Assembly: GCA_963796105.1 (NCBI GenBank)
Contig: CAWCKJ010000003.1
Location: forward strand, 224,001-288,000
Direction of reading: 5' to 3'
DNA from: a candidate division FCPU426 bacterium
Lineage (GTDB): Bacteria > Oederibacteriota > Muellerivitia > Muellerivitales > Muellerivitaceae
DNA length: 64,000 nucleotides
Below are positions 21,167 to 54,522 of the stretch, piece after piece (positions within the stretch are counted from its first letter, which is position 1; the number at the start of each line of letters is the position of its first letter). The notes under the pieces were generated by a model. The model ran no database searches, was not told where the DNA came from, and saw nothing but the letters and a program-made list of their open reading frames with translations. Position numbers and translations under genes: made by a program.

Positions 21167-22780
21167 ATGGGTTCATTGCGAAGCTGGCTAGTCGGAATCG
21201 TATTTGCTTTTTCGGCCATTTCAATAGTCATGTTCGGTTGTTCCCGACAGCTAGCGACCCCGGTGGGAGCTCCCAAACCCACACCTCTCCCCACTCGAAC
21301 CGGAACGCCAACTAATACGGGAACCCCGACTAAAACCCCAACCATCACCAACACTCCAACTCCAACCATAACACCCACTCCACCACCAACCCTTGTGGCG
21401 ACACCTGCAAATACTCTTGTCATTTCCGATATGGAGTGTGATTGCCCCTCCCTCTACACGCAAAACGGGATCAATGGTTTCTTTTTCACGACTACAGACC
21501 TAATTGGGACTTCGATTTCTCCAGTGGTGGGATCTTATTTTCTGCCCTCGAACCCAGGATACAATTCAAATTATTGCGCCAGGATAACTGGAACCGTTTC
21601 AATGCCCACGACCGCCATCACCCCGGGAGCTACTGCTTGTACCATCATTTCTTATCCATTCGCGAGCCTTGAGGCCAATTTTGTGACAAACGGGACTTAC
21701 AATATCTCATCAAGTATTTCCGGGGCAACTGGGATACGGTTTGACCTGAAGGCGGCCATTACCGGGTCATGCATTCCTCCGCCAATTCGTTTCATGATTA
21801 CCGACTCCGTCACCAGCGTTACTCAAGACGCCAATGGTTATATGATCATCCCTTCCACAGGTTGGACAGGGTCTTGGAACCCAGTCACCGTATATTTTGA
21901 CCAAATGATGACGGAGGGCCGGGTCACTCCCATGAGCCACGCGCTGGACCTGACGACCGCCACCCAGATGCAATGGCAAATAACTTATCCCGGCGCAGGT
22001 TATGACATATCCGTGGACAACGTCAGTTTCGTAACATCCGCAGATCCAAATCCAGCGTCAGTTCCCCCAAGTTTTCCAGCTTCATTGATTGATAATTGCC
22101 AATTAGGCATCAATTTCTGCCCCAATATAATGGGGCCCAATGATTCCAGAAGCAGGGGAGGGCCTTGGTTCGTTTACGCCAATAATCCCGCCAATAGCTC
22201 GAACGGAAGCGATATTATCTGCCCCGCTAATGGTGGATTTCCGTTCCTTATGAGTCCTGTAAACGATCTTCCTGGAGCGACTTATGCGGCACGGATGACG
22301 GGTATTATGGGGGCGAACGGATACCCTGGTATGGGTGTCCATTTCCTTCCGGCGGATTCATGTGGTTATGACCAACCCTACAATATTCAGGCCTCCCAGA
22401 CCAGCGGCCCTTATACAGGAATCCAGTTTTACGCCAAGGTTGGTTCAGACGGCCAAGACAGTACGGTGCAAGTTGTGATACCAGACTCGACAACAGATCC
22501 AAACATTCGAAACCCCATTTGCAATAGTTCATATTGTAATGGAAACAAATCAGACCTCGTTGATTTGGCAGCTTCTTTCAATCCCTGGGGTGAATTCTAT
22601 GACACTTGGATGTTGATACAATGCCCATTTACGAGTTTTACTCCGCCTAGTTGGGCCAATTCAAATCCAGTGAAGACACTTCAGACTAATGAGGCTATCG
22701 GAGTACAATTTCAGGTTAACTCCAACAGCACTGCTAATGGCTATTTTGATATTTGGATCGATACACTTAGTTTCTATTAA
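21167..22780 (+). CDS. Paralogous lipoprotein with Thr/Pro linker and two tandem carbohydrate-binding-like modules
   Basis: Lipobox MFG-C; co-linear similarity with 19170-20894 (YCARITG, GMGVHF.PA, DQPYNIQ, QFYAKVG). Confidence 0.75.
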   Translation: MGSLRSWLVGIVFAFSAISIVMFGCSRQLATPVGAPKPTPLPTRTGTPTNTGTPTKTPTITNTPTPTITPTPPPTLVATPANTLVISDMECDCPSLYTQNGINGFFFTTTDLIGTSISPVVGSYFLPSNPGYNSNYCARITGTVSMPTTAITPGATACTIISYPFASLEANFVTNGTYNISSSISGATGIRFDLKAAITGSCIPPPIRFMITDSVTSVTQDANGYMIIPSTGWTGSWNPVTVYFDQMMTEGRVTPMSHALDLTTATQMQWQITYPGAGYDISVDNVSFVTSADPNPASVPPSFPASLIDNCQLGINFCPNIMGPNDSRSRGGPWFVYANNPANSSNGSDIICPANGGFPFLMSPVNDLPGATYAARMTGIMGANGYPGMGVHFLPADSCGYDQPYNIQASQTSGPYTGIQFYAKVGSDGQDSTVQVVIPDSTTDPNIRNPICNSSYCNGNKSDLVDLAASFNPWGEFYDTWMLIQCPFTSFTPPSWANSNPVKTLQTNEAIGVQFQVNSNSTANGYFDIWIDTLSFY

Positions 22781-37869: not shown

Positions 37870-37880
37870 TCTTTTCTTTA

Positions 37881-38021
37881 GGGAACCTCTAAATATTCAT
37901 TTTAACCCTCGCCCCTTGAGGGAGAGGGTAGGGTGAGGGGTGTTAATTTAAGACAATTTCACTCTCATCCCATCCTTCTCCCCTCCAGGGAGAAGGGGAA
38001 CAGCAATTATTAGAGTTGCCC
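37881..38021. mobile_element. MITE/REPIN-like element, family B, copy 2
   Basis: TA|GGGAACCTCTAAATATTCAT...TTAGAGTTGCCC; near reverse complement of 27154-27292. Confidence 0.75.
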
Positions 38022-38096
38022 TTTAAATAATTTCAAACAAAGTTTGCCAATAAATGAATGTGTGGTTTTAACCTGGTGGTTGTGAAAGGGGAATAA

Positions 38097-38321
<225 letters not shown>

Positions 38322-38331
38322 CGAGGATTAA

Positions 38332-38661
38332 ATGGAAACCATCAATGCTCAAGAAATTATCCAGGAAATGGTCCGGCGGATCGTTGAGAAATTCGATCCG
38401 GTTCAAATAATTCTTTTCGGTTCCTATGCGCGTGGAACTGCCGGGCCGGACAGTGACGTGGACCTGTTGGTGGTCATGCCAATTGACAATTCCCACAAGG
38501 AAAAAAACCTCGAAGTCAGCCTGGAATTGCGTGCAATGGGTTTGGCAAAAGATGTTTTTGTGGTGACCCCGGAAGAAGTCCAAAAGTACCGCGATATCGT
38601 GGGAAGCATTATTAAGACGGCTGTTCACGAAGGGAAAATTATCTATGAGCGTGCCGCCTGA
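38332..38661 (+). CDS. Minimal nucleotidyltransferase (MNT) antitoxin
   Basis: GS-x10-DxD motif 'LFGSYARGTAGPDSDVDLL'; overlaps the HEPN gene. Confidence 0.9.
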   Translation: METINAQEIIQEMVRRIVEKFDPVQIILFGSYARGTAGPDSDVDLLVVMPIDNSHKEKNLEVSLELRAMGLAKDVFVVTPEEVQKYRDIVGSIIKTAVHEGKIIYERAA

Positions 38662-39058
38662 ACAAATATATTTAGTCCGCCAATGGATTGAAAAGGCGGA
38701 AAGCGACTATAGGAATTTCCAGAACACGCTCAAAATGGACAAAGATTGTCCCTTCGATACCGTTTGCTTCCACACCCAACAATGTGCTGAAAAATACCTT
38801 AAAGCCCGCTTGGTTTATCTTTCCATCGATTTTCCCAAGATTCATGACATTTCGGAGATCATCAAACTCTTTCCGCCCGGCCTTGGAATCCCCCTAACCC
38901 CCGCAGATCAAGAAAAGTTAACGAGGTATGCCTGGATGGGACGCTATCCTGGTAATTGGGAACCGATGAACCGTCAAGACGCCGAGGAAACGGCAGCCTT
39001 GGCCACCAAGGTTCGAACTGCTATCCGGGCAAGCTTTCCAAAGGAAATTTTGAATTAA
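38645..39058 (+). CDS. HEPN-domain protein (toxin partner of MNT)
   Basis: 'W..KAE.D', 'CFHTQQCAEKYLKA', 'KIHDI', 'RYP'. Confidence 0.9.
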   Translation: MSVPPEQIYLVRQWIEKAESDYRNFQNTLKMDKDCPFDTVCFHTQQCAEKYLKARLVYLSIDFPKIHDISEIIKLFPPGLGIPLTPADQEKLTRYAWMGRYPGNWEPMNRQDAEETAALATKVRTAIRASFPKEILN

Positions 39059-39082
39059 ACCTTTTTTGAAAGTGGGCGCGAA

Positions 39083-39424
39083 ATGAAGGGAACAATGAAA
39101 CATAAGGAATCCTTGCCGGGGGGAGCGCTTCAAGAACATGCCCAAATTCCGAAAAAGAAACGACCTGATATTTACGCCGCTTTGAAACACCCGGACCCCC
39201 ACATCAATCTCGCGCGGAATATTCTGAACTTGCGACATAAGCACGGTTTCACCCAGATTGAGCTTGCGTAACGGTCAGGAGTTACCAGCCGAACCATCCA
39301 GAACATTGAAAATGTAAATAGCGGGTACAAACCAACCCTTGACGTTATTACGGGGCTTGCCAAGGCGCTCGAGGTAAAGCCGGAAGATTTGATAAAAACC
39401 GTGGACTTGGCTGAAAATTTTTAA
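39083..39424 (+). pseudogene. XRE-family HTH regulator interrupted by an in-frame TAA
   Basis: 'NILNLRHKHGFTQIELA*RSGVTSRTIQNIEN...PTLDVITGLAKALEVKPEDL'; stop at 39269-39271. Confidence 0.85.
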
Positions 39425-39442
39425 TTTGAACAAAAAAGATTT

Positions 39443-39937
39443 ATGTTTTTAAAAGGGAAATTTATGACGGTAATGACTGATTTCGATTGGTTTAAATCTG
39501 GATTTGATTTAGAGATTCAGCTTATGGAGGAATACGTAAAAGGAGTAGAACCTCTAATACAAAAAGAATTAAACGACTTTAAGGGAAAAATTGATGCTGA
39601 AGCGACAAAGATTAGCGATCCGACCTTTAAAGATGATTTTTATGAATTTCATTCTGGAGATTATTCAAATCTTAACGAGGGATTTCCAAATATTCTTAAT
39701 GAGTCCGCTCTGATTTCAATAATGGCGATGTTTGAAAAATATTTAAATTTCTCTTGTGCTTTTTTGGCTCAAAAAAGGCAAACCAAAATGGAATTAAAAG
39801 ATATCCAAGGCAAAGGCGTTTATAGGGCGAAAGTTTATTTGAGCAAAGTAATAGGGCTAAATTTAGAAACCGTAAATTTTTACTGGGACGACTTATCTTT
39901 GATTGGGGAGATTAGAAACGCGTGCGTCCAGATATGA
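39443..39937 (+). CDS. Hypothetical AT-rich protein, possibly a C-terminally truncated HEPN-like protein
   Basis: 'SALISIMAMFEKYL' helix and terminal 'EIRNACVQI*' resembling an R-x4-H motif without the His. Confidence 0.5.
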   Translation: MFLKGKFMTVMTDFDWFKSGFDLEIQLMEEYVKGVEPLIQKELNDFKGKIDAEATKISDPTFKDDFYEFHSGDYSNLNEGFPNILNESALISIMAMFEKYLNFSCAFLAQKRQTKMELKDIQGKGVYRAKVYLSKVIGLNLETVNFYWDDLSLIGEIRNACVQI

Positions 39938-40023
39938 CAGGTGCTTGTCGACTCAATGGATTAGGCATAAAATGAAATTAATTTTGAAGATCAAAAGACA
40001 TTGATTTTAATCCGGGGGCTTAA

Positions 40024-40340
40024 GTGCTAGTTGAAAAGTCAGTTGTGGACAATTTGGTAAATCAAATCGTGGAAGCGGTCCACCCGCTTCGCATAATCCT
40101 TTTCGGATCGGCGGTCAGGGGGGATATGGGCCGGATAGCGATATTGACCTTTTGATTGTCATGCCGGAAGGAACTGACCGGGACAAGGTCAGCAAATTGC
40201 TTTATTGCCAGGTAACCGAACTTAAGGTGGCGTTTGATATGGTGGTTGCCACTCCTGATGTTCTTGAGAAATATAAAAACAATTGCGCCCTGGTTTACAA
40301 ATGGGCACTTAAAGATGGCCGTGAAGTTTATGCCGCCTGA
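40024..40340 (+). pseudogene. Frameshifted MNT nucleotidyltransferase
   Basis: 'IVEAVHPLRIILFGSAVRGDMG' in one frame continues as 'PDSDIDLLIVMP...GREVYAA*' after a 1-bp deletion near 40130. Confidence 0.85.
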
Positions 40341-40431
40341 GTGTAGTAAAAAACCATTTAAGGGTACGAGAGTAGTAAACGGCGAATGTAGGGCTCCGTC
40401 GCTTAGAGGCCTTAAGCCGGGGACCTGGATT

Positions 40432-41685
40432 TTAGGTTTTCGGCTCCTGCATAAGGAACCCCACCAACTTGGCGGTTAAGCCGCCTTTCAAGAACCTTTG
40501 GGCGGCCTGGGCCGTCTCCAAGGCCTTTTGCCCCCCGGTCACGGACAAGTGGATCTCATAAGCCTCCCCGCCCTTGTGTTTGACCTTAATATCGGGCCCC
40601 AAACCCTTCCAAGCCTCCGCCATGGGGTCTTTTTCCTTATTGGAAGCCTTTTTAGTGTCAAAATCCCTAGCTTCATTCCCGTCCTTGACCCATTCGACCA
40701 TCTTTTTGGCTAAAACTTCCGGCATTCTGTTATCAATGACGATTTCAAGGGTTTCTTCAATCAAATCAGGGTCCGCCAATTTAGCCAATATCAGCAAAAT
40801 GGACTCGGTTATCAAATATTCGGGCTCTTCTTTGCCCAGCTGCTGGGCAGGATCGTCTCCAGTCTCTGCCTGGGTGCCCAGCGGCTGGGCATTTGTAACA
40901 CCGGTATCGATCTTTGCGCCCAGAGGCTGGGCAGTATCGGTCCCAGTCTCGGCTTGGGTGCCCAGCGGCTGGGCAGTTTTAACCCCGGTATCGGCCTCCG
41001 CGCCCAGCGGCTGGGCATGGTAATCCTCTGGAAGAAGGGCTTTGTCCTTGTTCAACATAATCGAAATCCTGGCGTCCTCAGTAAGGAGACTTGTCAATAT
41101 CAAAGCATTATAAACCTTGCCTTTGGACAAGCCCAACAGCTTGGCAAGCTGTCTTTGGGACAATTTCGGATTGGCCTTATGTTCCACTTCAATCGCTACA
41201 TCCAAATCCCACCAATCCATTTCAACAAGGTTATTGTCCATAAAGGCGGAAAAATGGGTTTTTTCGGGGGGAATATCCACGATTTCACATTTCAAGGCCT
41301 CAAACCCGGCCAGCTTTGCCCCTTCCAGGCGCCTGTGGCCCCCGATCACCATATATTCGAAACCCATTTCAGCGAGCGTTTCCTTGGGTACTACCTGTCC
41401 CTCATATTCCGGTTTTCGTAGGGAAGCTTTTTCTTCCGCCGTCAGGGGACGGACTTTTAGCAGGGTTTGCTGGCCTATGGCTTTCAGGGAATCGGCCATT
41501 TCCCCGATGCAACCAGGCCTTATTAGATGCCGTGGCTGATCGATATTGGGCATTAGCTTTTTTATGGGAATCTTTTTCACCTGAACCCGGGTCTCCAATC
41601 CGGGTTCGTGGTTTGGTATCTTCTTTTTCGGGTTGGCGTCGGTCGATGCTGGATTGGGGGAAGAAGCTTTTGGATTTTTCGACAT
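40432..41685 (-). CDS. Orphan ParB/RepB/Spo0J-family protein with internal 14-aa repeats
   Basis: 'PNIDQPR', 'SLKAIGQ', 'IGGHRRLEGA' (arginine patch), HTH 'LSQRQLAKLLGLSKGKV'; GGAGG RBS before ATG at 41685. Confidence 0.88.
   Translation of the reverse strand: MSKNPKASSPNPASTDANPKKKIPNHEPGLETRVQVKKIPIKKLMPNIDQPRHLIRPGCIGEMADSLKAIGQQTLLKVRPLTAEEKASLRKPEYEGQVVPKETLAEMGFEYMVIGGHRRLEGAKLAGFEALKCEIVDIPPEKTHFSAFMDNNLVEMDWWDLDVAIEVEHKANPKLSQRQLAKLLGLSKGKVYNALILTSLLTEDARISIMLNKDKALLPEDYHAQPLGAEADTGVKTAQPLGTQAETGTDTAQPLGAKIDTGVTNAQPLGTQAETGDDPAQQLGKEEPEYLITESILLILAKLADPDLIEETLEIVIDNRMPEVLAKKMVEWVKDGNEARDFDTKKASNKEKDPMAEAWKGLGPDIKVKHKGGEAYEIHLSVTGGQKALETAQAAQRFLKGGLTAKLVGFLMQEPKT
40833..41017. repeat. 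Array of five 17-bp palindromes at a 42-bp period inside parB
   Basis: (T/C)GCCCAG(C/A)-N-GCTGGGCA starting at 40833, 40875, 40917, 40959 and 41001. Confidence 0.95.
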
Positions 41686-41858
41686 AAGGAACCTCCAAAT
41701 AAATAGTTTTTGAGGGTTGAAAAACCCATCTGCGATGGAATTTTTCAACAGTCTCAGATTTGAGCCGCTTACGTATCCAAAAATAATCCCGACCCTTCGA
41801 ATGGGTCAATAGGAAAATGTATTCCACGGTATATAATGCGAAACTAATCCAGCTTTAA

Positions 41859-51518: not shown

Positions 51519-53146
51519 AATTGGACTTTAAAGTGGTGATGAGCCAAATTCGGGAAAAGAATCAATATGTTGTTTGGAGTGGGCTTGGTTTGGTTTTAGC
51601 CGGTATTTTTGCCATGCTCATCATGAACACGACCAATTGGTGGAATCTCCTTATTTTGATAATCGGCATCCTTGCGCTGGGTTGCTTTGTCGCTGTCAAT
51701 CTCGCCGAAGTTAGGGAAGTGGGAAAAAAGCACTCCACCCAAGTGAAAGCCAATCTGGTAATGGTGGCTATAGCCATGTTGGGCGTCATAGTCGCCATTA
51801 ATTATATTTTTTCACGGCATCCGGTTCGATTCGACCTAACCGCAAACAAGCTTTACACTCTTTCGGATCAGACAACCGACATTCTTCATAAACTCGGACA
51901 GGACGTTAATGTCACATTTTTCAGTTCCGCCAAAAGATCCTCCGCGGAAGTCCAGAAAGCGCAACAACTTCTGGAAGAATACTCTAAAAACAGCACCAAG
52001 TTTCATTTCAAGGTCATTGATGTGGACAAAAGCCCAACCGAGGCAAAGCGCCTGAGCATTCATGAATACAACACAGTGGTTTTTGAAAGCGGCGACAATC
52101 GAAAAGACGTCCTTCAGCGGGACTATGTGACTTACGCCTTGCAGGGACGGCAGCCCATGCCTAAGTTTCAAGGAGAGGGCGCCTTCACCGCCGCGCTCAT
52201 CAAGATGACCAGCACTACCCATCTGACTTTTTATTTCACCGAGGGACATGGGGAAAGGGATTTAAACAGTCCCGAACCGGACGGTTTGAATACTTTCAAG
52301 GATATGCTGGATAAGGAAAATTATGCCGTCAAATCCTTGAATCTCTTGACGTCTGGGAAAATGCCAACCGACGCGGCTGTTTTGGCTATCGTCGGACCCA
52401 CCAAGCCCTTTCAGCCCTCAGAAGTATCGCTCATTGAGGATTATTTGAAAACCGGTGGTAAGGTCATTGCTTGCTTGGATCCGATCATTAAATCCGGCAT
52501 GTTGGCGAATACCGGCTTGGACCAGCTCCTGAAGCAGTATGGCGTGAAACTCGGAAACGACTTGGTTTATGACTCCACTAGTTTCGCGTTCCCGGACGTC
52601 CGGGCGGTCATTCCTCAATACGGCGCCTCGCCCATTGTCGAAAAACTCTCCAGCGAGCACATCGCGACAATCATGCCTTTCACCCGAAGCGTCCAAAAAA
52701 TCGATCCTGAGTTAAAGAACGTGAACCAATCGATTTTCATGCAAACCACATCCAACGGCTGGGGAGAAACGAACTTCAAGCTGAAATCCCCGAAATATAA
52801 CCCTGCGGTGGATACCAAACCCCCGGTTCCAATGGCTATGACTTGCGAGGTTTCCCCAGTGGACAATGCCGTGAAGAAGACGCGGTTGGTCGTGTACGGC
52901 AACTCCAATTTCTTCACGAATCAATTCCTCCAGGGCCCTGGCAACCTCGATGTCGGCTTGAACAGTTTCAGCTGGGCCGCGGAGGAAGAGGACAAGGTTA
53001 CGGTTCACCCTAAGGAAGATACCCTCCGCGTGATGAACCTCTCGAATGTCGCGGCTCAGTTCATCAAATATCTGACTGTTATCATTATGCCCGTCGGCGT
53101 CCTCTTTGCCGGCGGCATCATCTGGTACCGCCGCCGCTCCTTATGA
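51515..53146 (+). CDS. GldG-family ABC accessory protein
   Basis: 'RFDLT.NK.YTLS.QT', 'YFTEGHGE', C-terminal TM ending in RRR. Confidence 0.9.
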   Translation: MKLDFKVVMSQIREKNQYVVWSGLGLVLAGIFAMLIMNTTNWWNLLILIIGILALGCFVAVNLAEVREVGKKHSTQVKANLVMVAIAMLGVIVAINYIFSRHPVRFDLTANKLYTLSDQTTDILHKLGQDVNVTFFSSAKRSSAEVQKAQQLLEEYSKNSTKFHFKVIDVDKSPTEAKRLSIHEYNTVVFESGDNRKDVLQRDYVTYALQGRQPMPKFQGEGAFTAALIKMTSTTHLTFYFTEGHGERDLNSPEPDGLNTFKDMLDKENYAVKSLNLLTSGKMPTDAAVLAIVGPTKPFQPSEVSLIEDYLKTGGKVIACLDPIIKSGMLANTGLDQLLKQYGVKLGNDLVYDSTSFAFPDVRAVIPQYGASPIVEKLSSEHIATIMPFTRSVQKIDPELKNVNQSIFMQTTSNGWGETNFKLKSPKYNPAVDTKPPVPMAMTCEVSPVDNAVKKTRLVVYGNSNFFTNQFLQGPGNLDVGLNSFSWAAEEEDKVTVHPKEDTLRVMNLSNVAAQFIKYLTVIIMPVGVLFAGGIIWYRRRSL

Positions 53147-54522
53147 AATCCTTCAGAACGACCCTCATTTTCTTTGGAATCTTGGCCCTTTTGGGTGGAT
53201 ACATCTATTTTTTCGAGAGGGGTCCTGTCAAGAAAGCCGAGGAAAAAAGAGAAAAAGTATTTGAGAATTTCGTGGCCGACGATATCCAGGAAATCCGCGT
53301 GGAAAACCTTGGAAACAGCTTGACTCCCGCCGCTCCCCCTATTGACATAAAAAAAGACGAGAAGGACGTTTGGCAGATTCTTTCCCCGCAAAAATATCAG
53401 GCTGACGAGAACACCCTCCGTGTTTTATTGCAATCGATAGGTGACCTTAATCCTGACGCGGCCATTACCAACATCTCAAACCTGGCTGATTACGGTTTGA
53501 ACAGCCCAACCGCCCGGTGCATTCTCACCGACAAGAAGGGAACATCCCACACCTTGATCGTGGGCGACAAAGGCGTTACAGGTTCTGACACCTATATTAA
53601 GACCTCTGAAAAACCAGCTGTTTACCTAATCCCGGCCTATACCACGGACAATATCAAAAAATCCGTCAACGACTACCGTAACCGGGTTCTTTTCAAAACC
53701 GACCTTGTTGCCGCTCAAAAAGTCGAGGTTGTTTATGGCGACAAGACTTTGGTTCTTGAGAAAGACGCGCAAAACACTTGGAATATTAAATCCCCCATTG
53801 AGGAAAAGGCTGACAGCTCGAAAATCCGCGATCTTTTAAACAGTTTGAACGACATGAAAGTCAATGAGTTCGTGGATGAGCATCCGAAGGACATAAAAAT
53901 ATACGGTTTATCCAAACCGCGTGGAAAAGTCACACTATGGCCTAGTGATAAAGGGTCTCCGAAAACTGTTTTAATAGGCCGTCAGAAACTTAAGACCACA
54001 GATGATTTCGTCAAGATGGAAGGCCAGGATTCGGTTTACCAGGTGGGCGATGCCTTTGTGAAACCCATGGATTTCAAAATCAACAATTTCCGGGATAAAC
54101 TTGTTATGCAATTTGCCGCGGATGTGGCTAAATCCTTGACGATCAAATCCCCACGCACTAATGTCACCTATCAAAAAGACGATAAAGGGATATGGACTTG
54201 TCCGGGACGGGTAAAAGCCCAGGATGAGGCATCCAATCTTATTTCCCAATTGTCTGAAACAGTCATCGTGGATTTCGCCTCCAATACCGTCAATACCGGT
54301 GTCGAGAACCCCTCCTTTGAGGCGAATGTGACTTTGAAGGATGGAACTTCCCGCCTTTACCGTTTCGGCCGGATCGACAATGGCCAGGTTTATCTCGCGT
54401 CCGACAAGAGCAAGGACACCTATCTGGTTTATATCAACCCCGTTTCCCAAATGGAATCCTATTACAACTCCATTTTGACCCCGATTCCGATTGCCTCCCC
54501 GGCGCCTTTGCCGAAAAAATAG
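53143..54522 (+). CDS. DUF4340-domain protein
   Basis: N-terminal TM; repeated 'W.I.SP....AD' and 'YGL..P' modules; usual position after GldG. Confidence 0.85.
   Translation: MKSFRTTLIFFGILALLGGYIYFFERGPVKKAEEKREKVFENFVADDIQEIRVENLGNSLTPAAPPIDIKKDEKDVWQILSPQKYQADENTLRVLLQSIGDLNPDAAITNISNLADYGLNSPTARCILTDKKGTSHTLIVGDKGVTGSDTYIKTSEKPAVYLIPAYTTDNIKKSVNDYRNRVLFKTDLVAAQKVEVVYGDKTLVLEKDAQNTWNIKSPIEEKADSSKIRDLLNSLNDMKVNEFVDEHPKDIKIYGLSKPRGKVTLWPSDKGSPKTVLIGRQKLKTTDDFVKMEGQDSVYQVGDAFVKPMDFKINNFRDKLVMQFAADVAKSLTIKSPRTNVTYQKDDKGIWTCPGRVKAQDEASNLISQLSETVIVDFASNTVNTGVENPSFEANVTLKDGTSRLYRFGRIDNGQVYLASDKSKDTYLVYINPVSQMESYYNSILTPIPIASPAPLPKK

Follow-up and report, generated by a model that had tools for sequence, protein, structure and literature searches.

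Can a gene carry, within its own coding sequence, the DNA site to which its product binds? This question is raised by an orphan parB-like gene in the genome of a candidate division FCPU426 bacterium (GCA_963796105.1, contig CAWCKJ010000003.1, positions 224,001-288,000 of the forward strand; this stretch of 64,000 nt is hereafter called the window). A previous sequence-only reading of the window proposed that an array of palindromes in this gene is dual-coding DNA, and that the gene forms a module of a protein together with its centromere or autoregulatory site. In the present study, we analyzed the array, the homologous genes and the other occurrences of the palindrome.

Five in-frame palindromes in a parB-like gene

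The features of the locus are as follows; the copies of the palindrome are numbered in the reading order of the gene.

37871..41843, accessory island of about 4 kb that follows tRNA-Arg(TCT), with a DUF433 gene, an MNT-HEPN pair, gene fragments and the ParB-like gene
40432..41685, minus strand, orphan ParB-like gene (417 aa) with a ParB N-terminal fold, an HTH domain, a C-terminal alpha-beta-beta-alpha domain and a short amphipathic tail
41230..41547, minus strand, ParB nucleotide-binding fold with NIDQPR (Box I-like), GGHRR (Box II GxxR) and MDNN (aligned with EN of Box III)
41095..41163, minus strand, HTH, residues 175-197, with the recognition helix S187-N193 (41107-41127)
41001..41017, palindrome copy 1, one mismatch, which affects the outermost pair, AQPLG
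40959..40975, palindrome copy 2, perfect, AQPLG
40917..40933, palindrome copy 3, two mismatches, AQPLG
40875..40891, palindrome copy 4, perfect, AQPLG
40833..40849, palindrome copy 5, perfect 8-bp arms, AQQLG, centre 8 codons ahead of the conserved YLITE helix
40453..40629, minus strand, C-terminal domain (helix-strand-strand-helix), amphipathic-looking tail at 40453-40482

Matches to the 17-bp palindrome TGCCCAGC-N-GCTGGGCA start at 40833, 40875, 40917, 40959 and 41001, with 0, 0, 2, 0 and 1 mismatches, respectively, exactly as the sequence-only reading had listed them. Six matches with up to 3 mismatches were observed, against a mean of 0.23 in shuffles of the sequence, and this number was reached in none of 100 shuffles. 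The period of the array is 42 bp with a higher-order unit of 84 bp (82-85% identity), and the previously suggested 84-bp duplication is seen in the 25-base spacers as well: partners at 84 bp differ at 6/25 and 7/25 positions, and other pairs at 10-15/25. On the minus strand, the palindromes encode AQPLG four times and AQQLG once, each followed by nine residues. The Ala, Gln, Leu and Gly codons of the five copies are invariant (20/20), and 23 of the 25 palindrome codons are the consensus codon; thus, the description of near-invariant palindrome codons between drifting spacers holds.

Taken by itself, the window gives weaker evidence than it might seem to, because common codons for AQxLG already make a self-complementary sequence (P=0.0056 per copy, given the codon usage of the genome), and homologues were therefore needed. 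A 151-base contig from a public run, which may stem from the same sampling campaign, is identical to 40893-41043; thus, an assembly artefact of the array is unlikely. No copy of the 17-mer was found upstream of the ParB-like gene or in its promoter region, and a promoter scan gave 5 hits where 2.5 were expected by chance, by which the reading as a promoter operator was rejected. Two other repeats were observed in the window. At 41136-41152, the codons of HTH helix 2 contain a second perfect palindrome with 8-bp arms, of another sequence and in the same codon phase; it is absent in homologues and is probably due to chance. At 21334-21391, there is a 24-bp tandem repeat (2.4 copies) of a Thr/Pro-coding type that is frequent in this genome.

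Palindromy is conserved at the DNA level

We aligned 94 unique frames of the family, dropped 8 fragments and scored the remaining 86, which correspond to 70 genes after collapse at 90% identity. The loop peptides of 20 protein homologues were unrelated to each other. Nevertheless, a perfect odd-centred palindrome with 8-bp arms was present in the loop region of 58/86 frames and one with at most one mismatch in 76/86, compared with 2/303 and 49/303, respectively, in control windows of equal length from the same genes. The centre falls on codon position 2 in 74 of the 76 frames with at most one mismatch. Under a null model of synonymous recoding, the palindromes were significant (P<=0.021) in 20 of the 21 genes tested; the exception, L008, has just palindrome copies with two mismatches, and 10/86 frames are without a good palindrome. 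Perfect palindromes at the same place in homologues are translated as peptides such as VRSAD, APSRG, ESSRF, VPNWN and YKQLI, and 64 different half-sites were found among the 70 non-redundant genes. The pattern that would speak for a peptide repeat, AQPLG kept over non-palindromic codons, did not appear, since palindromy was kept with other peptides. The constraint on the palindromes acts on the DNA and not on the peptide, as the proposal of dual coding had supposed.

The position and the spacing of the sites are also regular. In 31/70 genes, the site lies 19 codons past N193, where a predicted helix ends, and in most others 33 or 47 codons past N193, at further steps of 14 codons. Two to five copies were found in 13/70 genes, with the gene of the window having the most (five); the copy number thus varies (1-5) while palindromy is kept. 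The copies are spaced by 42 bp in 19 of 20 cases, which come from no fewer than three and probably from four separate clades. This spacing fits both four helical turns and an intact reading frame, which supports the earlier idea that it serves both, and we infer selection on phasing.

The ParB-like protein

In Pfam, the ParB_N match of the protein (E=4e-5, 23.9 bits) is below the cut-off of 26.3, and its close homologues are above it. Profile matches to Spo0J/Noc had E values down to 5e-16, and Foldseek (E 4e-8) returned Noc as the best match, together with ParB and KorB. The Box I, GxxR Box II and Box III motifs of the N-terminal ParB fold could be aligned, and the central HTH DNA-binding domain expected of the superfamily is present. 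The HTH aligns residue by residue with that of Spo0J, and the subsequent helices resume beyond the array. The array itself (residues 223-285) is a predicted disordered loop between the post-HTH helix and the conserved YLITE helix. It had been placed just after the HTH; it in fact begins 26 residues beyond it, but is still inside the DNA-binding domain, before the last helices.

In the predicted structure, the order of elements in the C-terminal region, helix-strand-strand-helix, is that of the ParB dimer domain. A fold search with this region gave no match above Z 3.4, and the Spo0J C-terminal domain (5NOC) ranked 11th (Z 3.1, rmsd 4.0, 47 aligned residues), tied with unrelated chains, so that the match to the dimer domain is no better than noise. 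No C-terminal Pfam domain was named in 25 mostly long homologues.

The scores against models of known groups were low: 38.3 bits for TIGR00180 (curated cut-off 58.45), which represents canonical ParABS, and 35.6 bits for the Noc model (cut-off 315). The N-terminus is polar and predicted to be disordered, in place of the amphipathic helix of Noc. Furthermore, KorB is characterized by a conserved operator core and an IncP plasmid context, whereas the inner bases of the present sites vary and the gene is in a chromosomal island. There is free variation of the AGC-N-GCT core within the family, and the resemblance to the AGC-G-GCT core of the IncP-1 KorB operator, which the sequence-only reading had pointed out, was therefore rejected. 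By membership, the protein is outside canonical ParABS, Noc and KorB; in its working, it may resemble Noc, KorB or BisD. The nucleotide specificity of a ParB fold is reported not to be predictable from the sequence (PMC12704722).

The palindrome co-varies with the recognition helix

If the palindrome is the binding site, it should change together with the residues that read it. K188 and N193 of the recognition helix align with ParB residues R173 and N178 (Caulobacter numbering; the correspondence of K188 was taken from the Spo0J alignment and mapped to Caulobacter in this analysis), and both co-vary with the palindrome. Among 234 five-residue windows, with overall identity removed, the recognition helix window GKVYN was the best correlate of the inner half-site (r=0.22; mean of windows 0.015, sd 0.055). 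When bases +2 to +7 were predicted at minimum tree distances of 0, 0.8 and 1.2, four helix residues (K188, G189, Y192 and N193, positions partly picked after viewing the mutual-information table) gave 3.85, 3.63 and 3.56 correct bases of 6, and the nearest tree neighbour gave 3.4, 2.8 and 2.8. Sixty control quadruplets reached at most 3.02 of 6, below the helix quadruplet at all three distances. These results support the predicted co-variation of the palindrome with the DNA-binding residues.

As for individual positions, Gln at the R173 equivalent is found with T at +6 in 12/13 genes, and Lys with C at +7 in 18/18. The same logic is described for ParB and Noc, in which R173 reads guanine and the Gln of Noc reads adenine (PMC7383237). 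A distant paralogue from another clade and another genome (L064), which has a KVYN helix, has a 17-mer identical to that of the window. On independent tree pairs (4-8 for each), none of the single residue-base pairs was significant (median p 0.06-0.5), and the direction was almost never opposite. The mutual information of single columns was noisy, with columns outside the HTH at the top for positions +1, +2, +3 and +5.

Occurrences outside the gene

A genome scan, which had been suggested as a check, found the 17-mer in non-coding DNA of the same genome: three exact copies, another with one mismatch, and a symmetric variant, changed in one pair, at three places, against 0.001-0.002 expected for each. 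Thus, contrary to the proposal, the module is not purely one of a single gene. The extragenic copies are within a dispersed element, mostly near phased tandem arrays, and they are not independent of each other because these elements are homologous. In this element, phased GTTGCGCGATT-type repeats precede two or three palindromes of the family type, which are separated by about 52 and 41 bp; from copy to copy the inner bases of these palindromes vary, with the symmetry retained (L028-L031 and L033; in the own genome, G000, at C2:257850-258070, C3:106700-106960, C3:598150-598400, C4:510120-510330 and C4:1592550-1592800). Several of these elements adjoin transposase/ATPase gene pairs, which we take to be IS21-like. 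Two 17-mer-type sites near the host parAB are 13 kb away from it and inside the dispersed element; since the copies are scattered over three contigs, the reading of the 17-mer as the host chromosomal parS was rejected.

Two or more CCAG-type sites were found in 6/61 genomes, and all six are among the 19 genomes with the family. Thirteen family-bearing genomes have no CCAG-type site, and 4/42 genomes without a family match have one. In G016, G022 and G030, the palindrome of the short-clade gene occurs twice more outside the gene, together with non-cognate variants; the four CCAG-type sites of G016 do not match its short-clade gene. The own genome also has extragenic palindrome variants for which no matching gene was found. 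In related genomes, several different family palindromes stand side by side in intergenic clusters (L115, L116, L119, L120, L123 and L124), which look like shared landing pads for several paralogues.

Other paralogues of the own genome were also observed. One, of 921 codons (L038:4319-7081; C3:513318-516080, minus strand), has at the same place, in the same phase, a perfect palindrome of another sequence, as well as a long C-terminal region without a Pfam match, and no extragenic copy of its palindrome. The segment L039:4417-4704 (C8:177416-177703) matches the C-terminal part of the ParB-like gene alone at 60% identity and is a relic of a second copy. Six distant paralogues (C4:724380, C2:127577, C4:1196524, C12:331464, C2:368832 and C12:9472; L035, L036, L037 and L040) retain the HTH and the helical DNA-binding half without the ParB N-terminal fold. 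All six start 52-206 bp from a non-coding tandem array with a period of 21, 42, 43 or 52 bp, and 2.3% of random points are within 700 bp of such an array. The paralogues without the ParB fold are candidate binders of the phased repeat arrays of their own genome.

Genomic setting and distribution

In a genome of the same genus, tRNA-Arg almost directly precedes the phosphomannomutase gene, and the island of about 4 kb is absent at that place. Besides the ParB-like gene, the island contains, at 38103-40340, a DUF433 gene, an intact MNT-HEPN pair and a 164-aa frame without a Pfam match. A decayed frame of HTH-like type is located near 39100-39420, and a second, MNT-like remnant near 40030-40340. 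The cargo thus includes genes of the toxin-antitoxin type. An origin by an integrase or with att duplication is not supported, since no integrase was found among 11 scanned ORF proteins and the 3' end of the tRNA has no second copy. Linkage to a tRNA was found in none of 12 loci of the family, and the neighbour genes vary between those homologous loci that were listed.

The family is present in 17/30 genomes of the same bacterial family and in 1/30 more distant genomes, with at most 10 matches per genome. In 133 candidate stretches from viral contigs, no relative could be confirmed, and 19 plasmid and 8 phage records gave just weak N-terminal matches and no close relative. A phage or plasmid home of the family was rejected on these searches. 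The host has a chromosomal parAB of the normal type (C4:1579473) and a second, plasmid-like parA-parB pair (C14, about 52000-54000; L002).

Possible function and alternative explanations

The palindrome is very probably the duplex DNA site of the ParB-like protein. We further consider it probable, with less confidence, that the protein is an orphan clamp of the Noc/KorB/BisD type that is not used for partition and that loads on its own gene and at scattered cognate sites. The dimer would read the two half-sites, bind nucleotide (probably CTP), close as a clamp and slide along the DNA, as ParB, Noc, KorB and BisD do; dimer binding, nucleotide-dependent closure and sliding have been described for ParB-type proteins (PMC12409273, PMC8429893 and PMC5002424). 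Loading within the reading frame would damp the transcription of the gene, and autoregulation in this way is plausible; damping of nearby transcription has been ascribed mostly to overexpression (PMC5002424). Since reader and site are physically linked in one piece of DNA, the pair could change its specificity jointly and move as a unit. In the rest of the chromosome, the few cognate copies in non-coding DNA may serve the same protein as further loading sites. In the least supported step, the loaded DNA may be tied to the membrane by the C-terminal amphipathic tail or, in long paralogues, by a transmembrane helix.

Explanations of the symmetry that need no protein reader fit the data poorly. 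A protein-level AQPLG repeat whose preferred codons happen to be self-complementary has in its favour the palindromic common codons described above and the shared ancestry of the copies, but perfect palindromes at this place of homologues are translated into unrelated peptides, and the 17-mer is also found in non-coding DNA; this explanation is largely refuted, and we give it hardly any weight. Hairpins in single-stranded mRNA or DNA, or symmetry kept by template switching, are somewhat less remote and still very improbable. The RNA of the array folds better than shuffles (z=-5.4), as any palindrome array would do; the 13 arm mismatches at positions 2-8 include five G-T and one A-C; and the centre bases of copies within a gene differ by complement in 8 of the 10 genes with a difference, as inversion gives. 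Furthermore, template switching is reported to perfect inverted repeats (PMC5941160). However, neither process predicts the fixed position, the 42-bp phasing or the co-variation with the recognition helix. The innermost pair, which could not pair in a hairpin loop, is complementary in 55/61 sites, and this suits a symmetric dimer on duplex DNA. Template switching may be the route by which both arms change at once, rather than the reason why the site is retained.

Among explanations with a protein reader, a centromere was one of the options raised by the sequence-only reading. The array would act as a sopC-like parS with which a ParA in trans partitions a mobile element or a chromosome segment. 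The protein appears to have the three-part ParB architecture, an array of 17-bp palindromes at a period of 42 bp is similar to sopC, which has 12 units of 43 bp with 16-bp inverted repeats (PMC2910045), and parS-359 is within parB of B. subtilis (PMC4442127). However, a ParA-type Walker A motif is absent from the window and from the regions upstream of 70 loci of the family (at least 1 kb of such DNA was available for 64), the ParA-binding motif LG-R/K-GL was found in 0/70 family frames and is present in the parB of the host, and many homologues begin 5-14 residues ahead of the ParB fold. The existence of host parAB elsewhere, the occurrence of up to 10 matches per genome at unrelated chromosomal places and the lack of close relatives in the searched viral contigs, plasmids and phages also speak against it. 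We thus regard a centromere as very unlikely, and the protein probably does not drive ParA-dependent partition. Another possibility is that a membrane tether is the main job, with Noc-like anchoring of the own locus and of the cognate clusters to the inner membrane and autoregulation being incidental. A transmembrane segment is predicted in 34/47 long frames of the family against 2/23 short ones, the C-terminus of most short-clade proteins is an amphipathic, weakly basic helix led by GG (moment 0.40-0.68), and Noc uses an amphipathic helix and CTP for anchoring (PMC8429893). However, the membrane calls come from hydropathy windows alone, the tail is reduced to GIF or GIFA in 4/18 close homologues, its moment in the protein of the window is modest (0.40, 84th percentile), and AlphaFold makes it continuous with the last helix of the C-terminal domain. 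We consider tethering as the main job unlikely, though less so than a centromere.

The orphan, self-loading clamp is thus the explanation that we prefer, and it may be part of a wider pattern, which we propose tentatively and regard as possible rather than probable: a self-addressed DNA clamp library. Each of the expanded paralogues (about 10 matches per genome at most) would have a private loading palindrome in the region coding for its DNA-binding domain; helix and site would be rewritten together by a simple, readable code, and the site amplified in four-turn steps. The own locus and shared intergenic site clusters would be tethered to the membrane, and the rule would extend to relatives without the ParB fold, in which phased direct-repeat arrays lie immediately upstream.

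Orphan ParB proteins are described as frequent, and for most of them no target is known (PMC12704722). Should the in-gene palindrome be the target, each family gene would itself reveal the site of its product, and the function of the members would therefore become testable at once. The 64 natural half-sites with their helix sequences extend a study of the evolution of DNA specificity that had two cases, ParB and Noc, and they offer a possible explanation of joint changes in reader and site, namely that one piece of DNA serves as both. For the labelling of loci, orthogonal clamp-site pairs are wanted; if the library exists, it would be a natural source of dozens of such pairs, readable from the gene sequences.

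Comparison with known systems

In searches of open-access papers, we found no description of a variable in-gene palindrome as a family rule in orphan parB genes, and the word "palindrom" does not occur in the main text of a survey of orphan ParB folds (PMC12704722). The single elements have precedents. In B. subtilis, the gene of ParB (Spo0J) holds parS-359, a palindromic site for its own product (PMC4442127), as is probable for the present family. However, that is one conserved 16-bp site of a parAB operon for chromosome segregation, whereas here there are one to five odd-centred sites, the sequence of which differs in nearly every gene, and there is no link to ParA. Noc of Bacillus, with its site NBS, is likewise an orphan ParB paralogue without the ParA motif and with its own palindrome, and the likeness extends to the specificity at the R173 equivalent and a possible amphipathic membrane helix (PMC7383237 and PMC8429893); specificity is conserved in the Noc family, and the Noc helix is N-terminal.

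BisD-bisS of ICEclc and KorB-OB of RK2 are ParB-type CTP clamps that are not used for partition, and by analogy the present protein may be such a clamp. bisS is an odd-centred palindrome inside coding genes, as here (PMC12409273), but it is in inrR and ssb and not in bisD, whereas the present site is in the gene of the probable binder itself. Neither conjugation genes nor a partner regulator was seen beside the ParB-like gene in the loci read. SopB-sopC of the F plasmid shares the helically phased palindrome array (43-bp period); sopC is a separate centromere that works with SopA, whereas the present array is translated and its period, 42, is a multiple of three (PMC2910045). The iterons of ori-lambda in the lambda O gene are an inverted-repeat array for a dimer within the gene of that dimer (PMC5043065), but lambda O is a replication initiator of another family, and there is no indication of an origin function here. 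Thus, a site within the gene of its binder (parS-359 and the lambda iterons), bisS in other ICE genes and the 43-bp array of sopC were already known from these sources; the lineage-wide set of paralogues, the readable code, the recurrent amplification by 42 bp and the connection with the phased repeat arrays of the genome are new.
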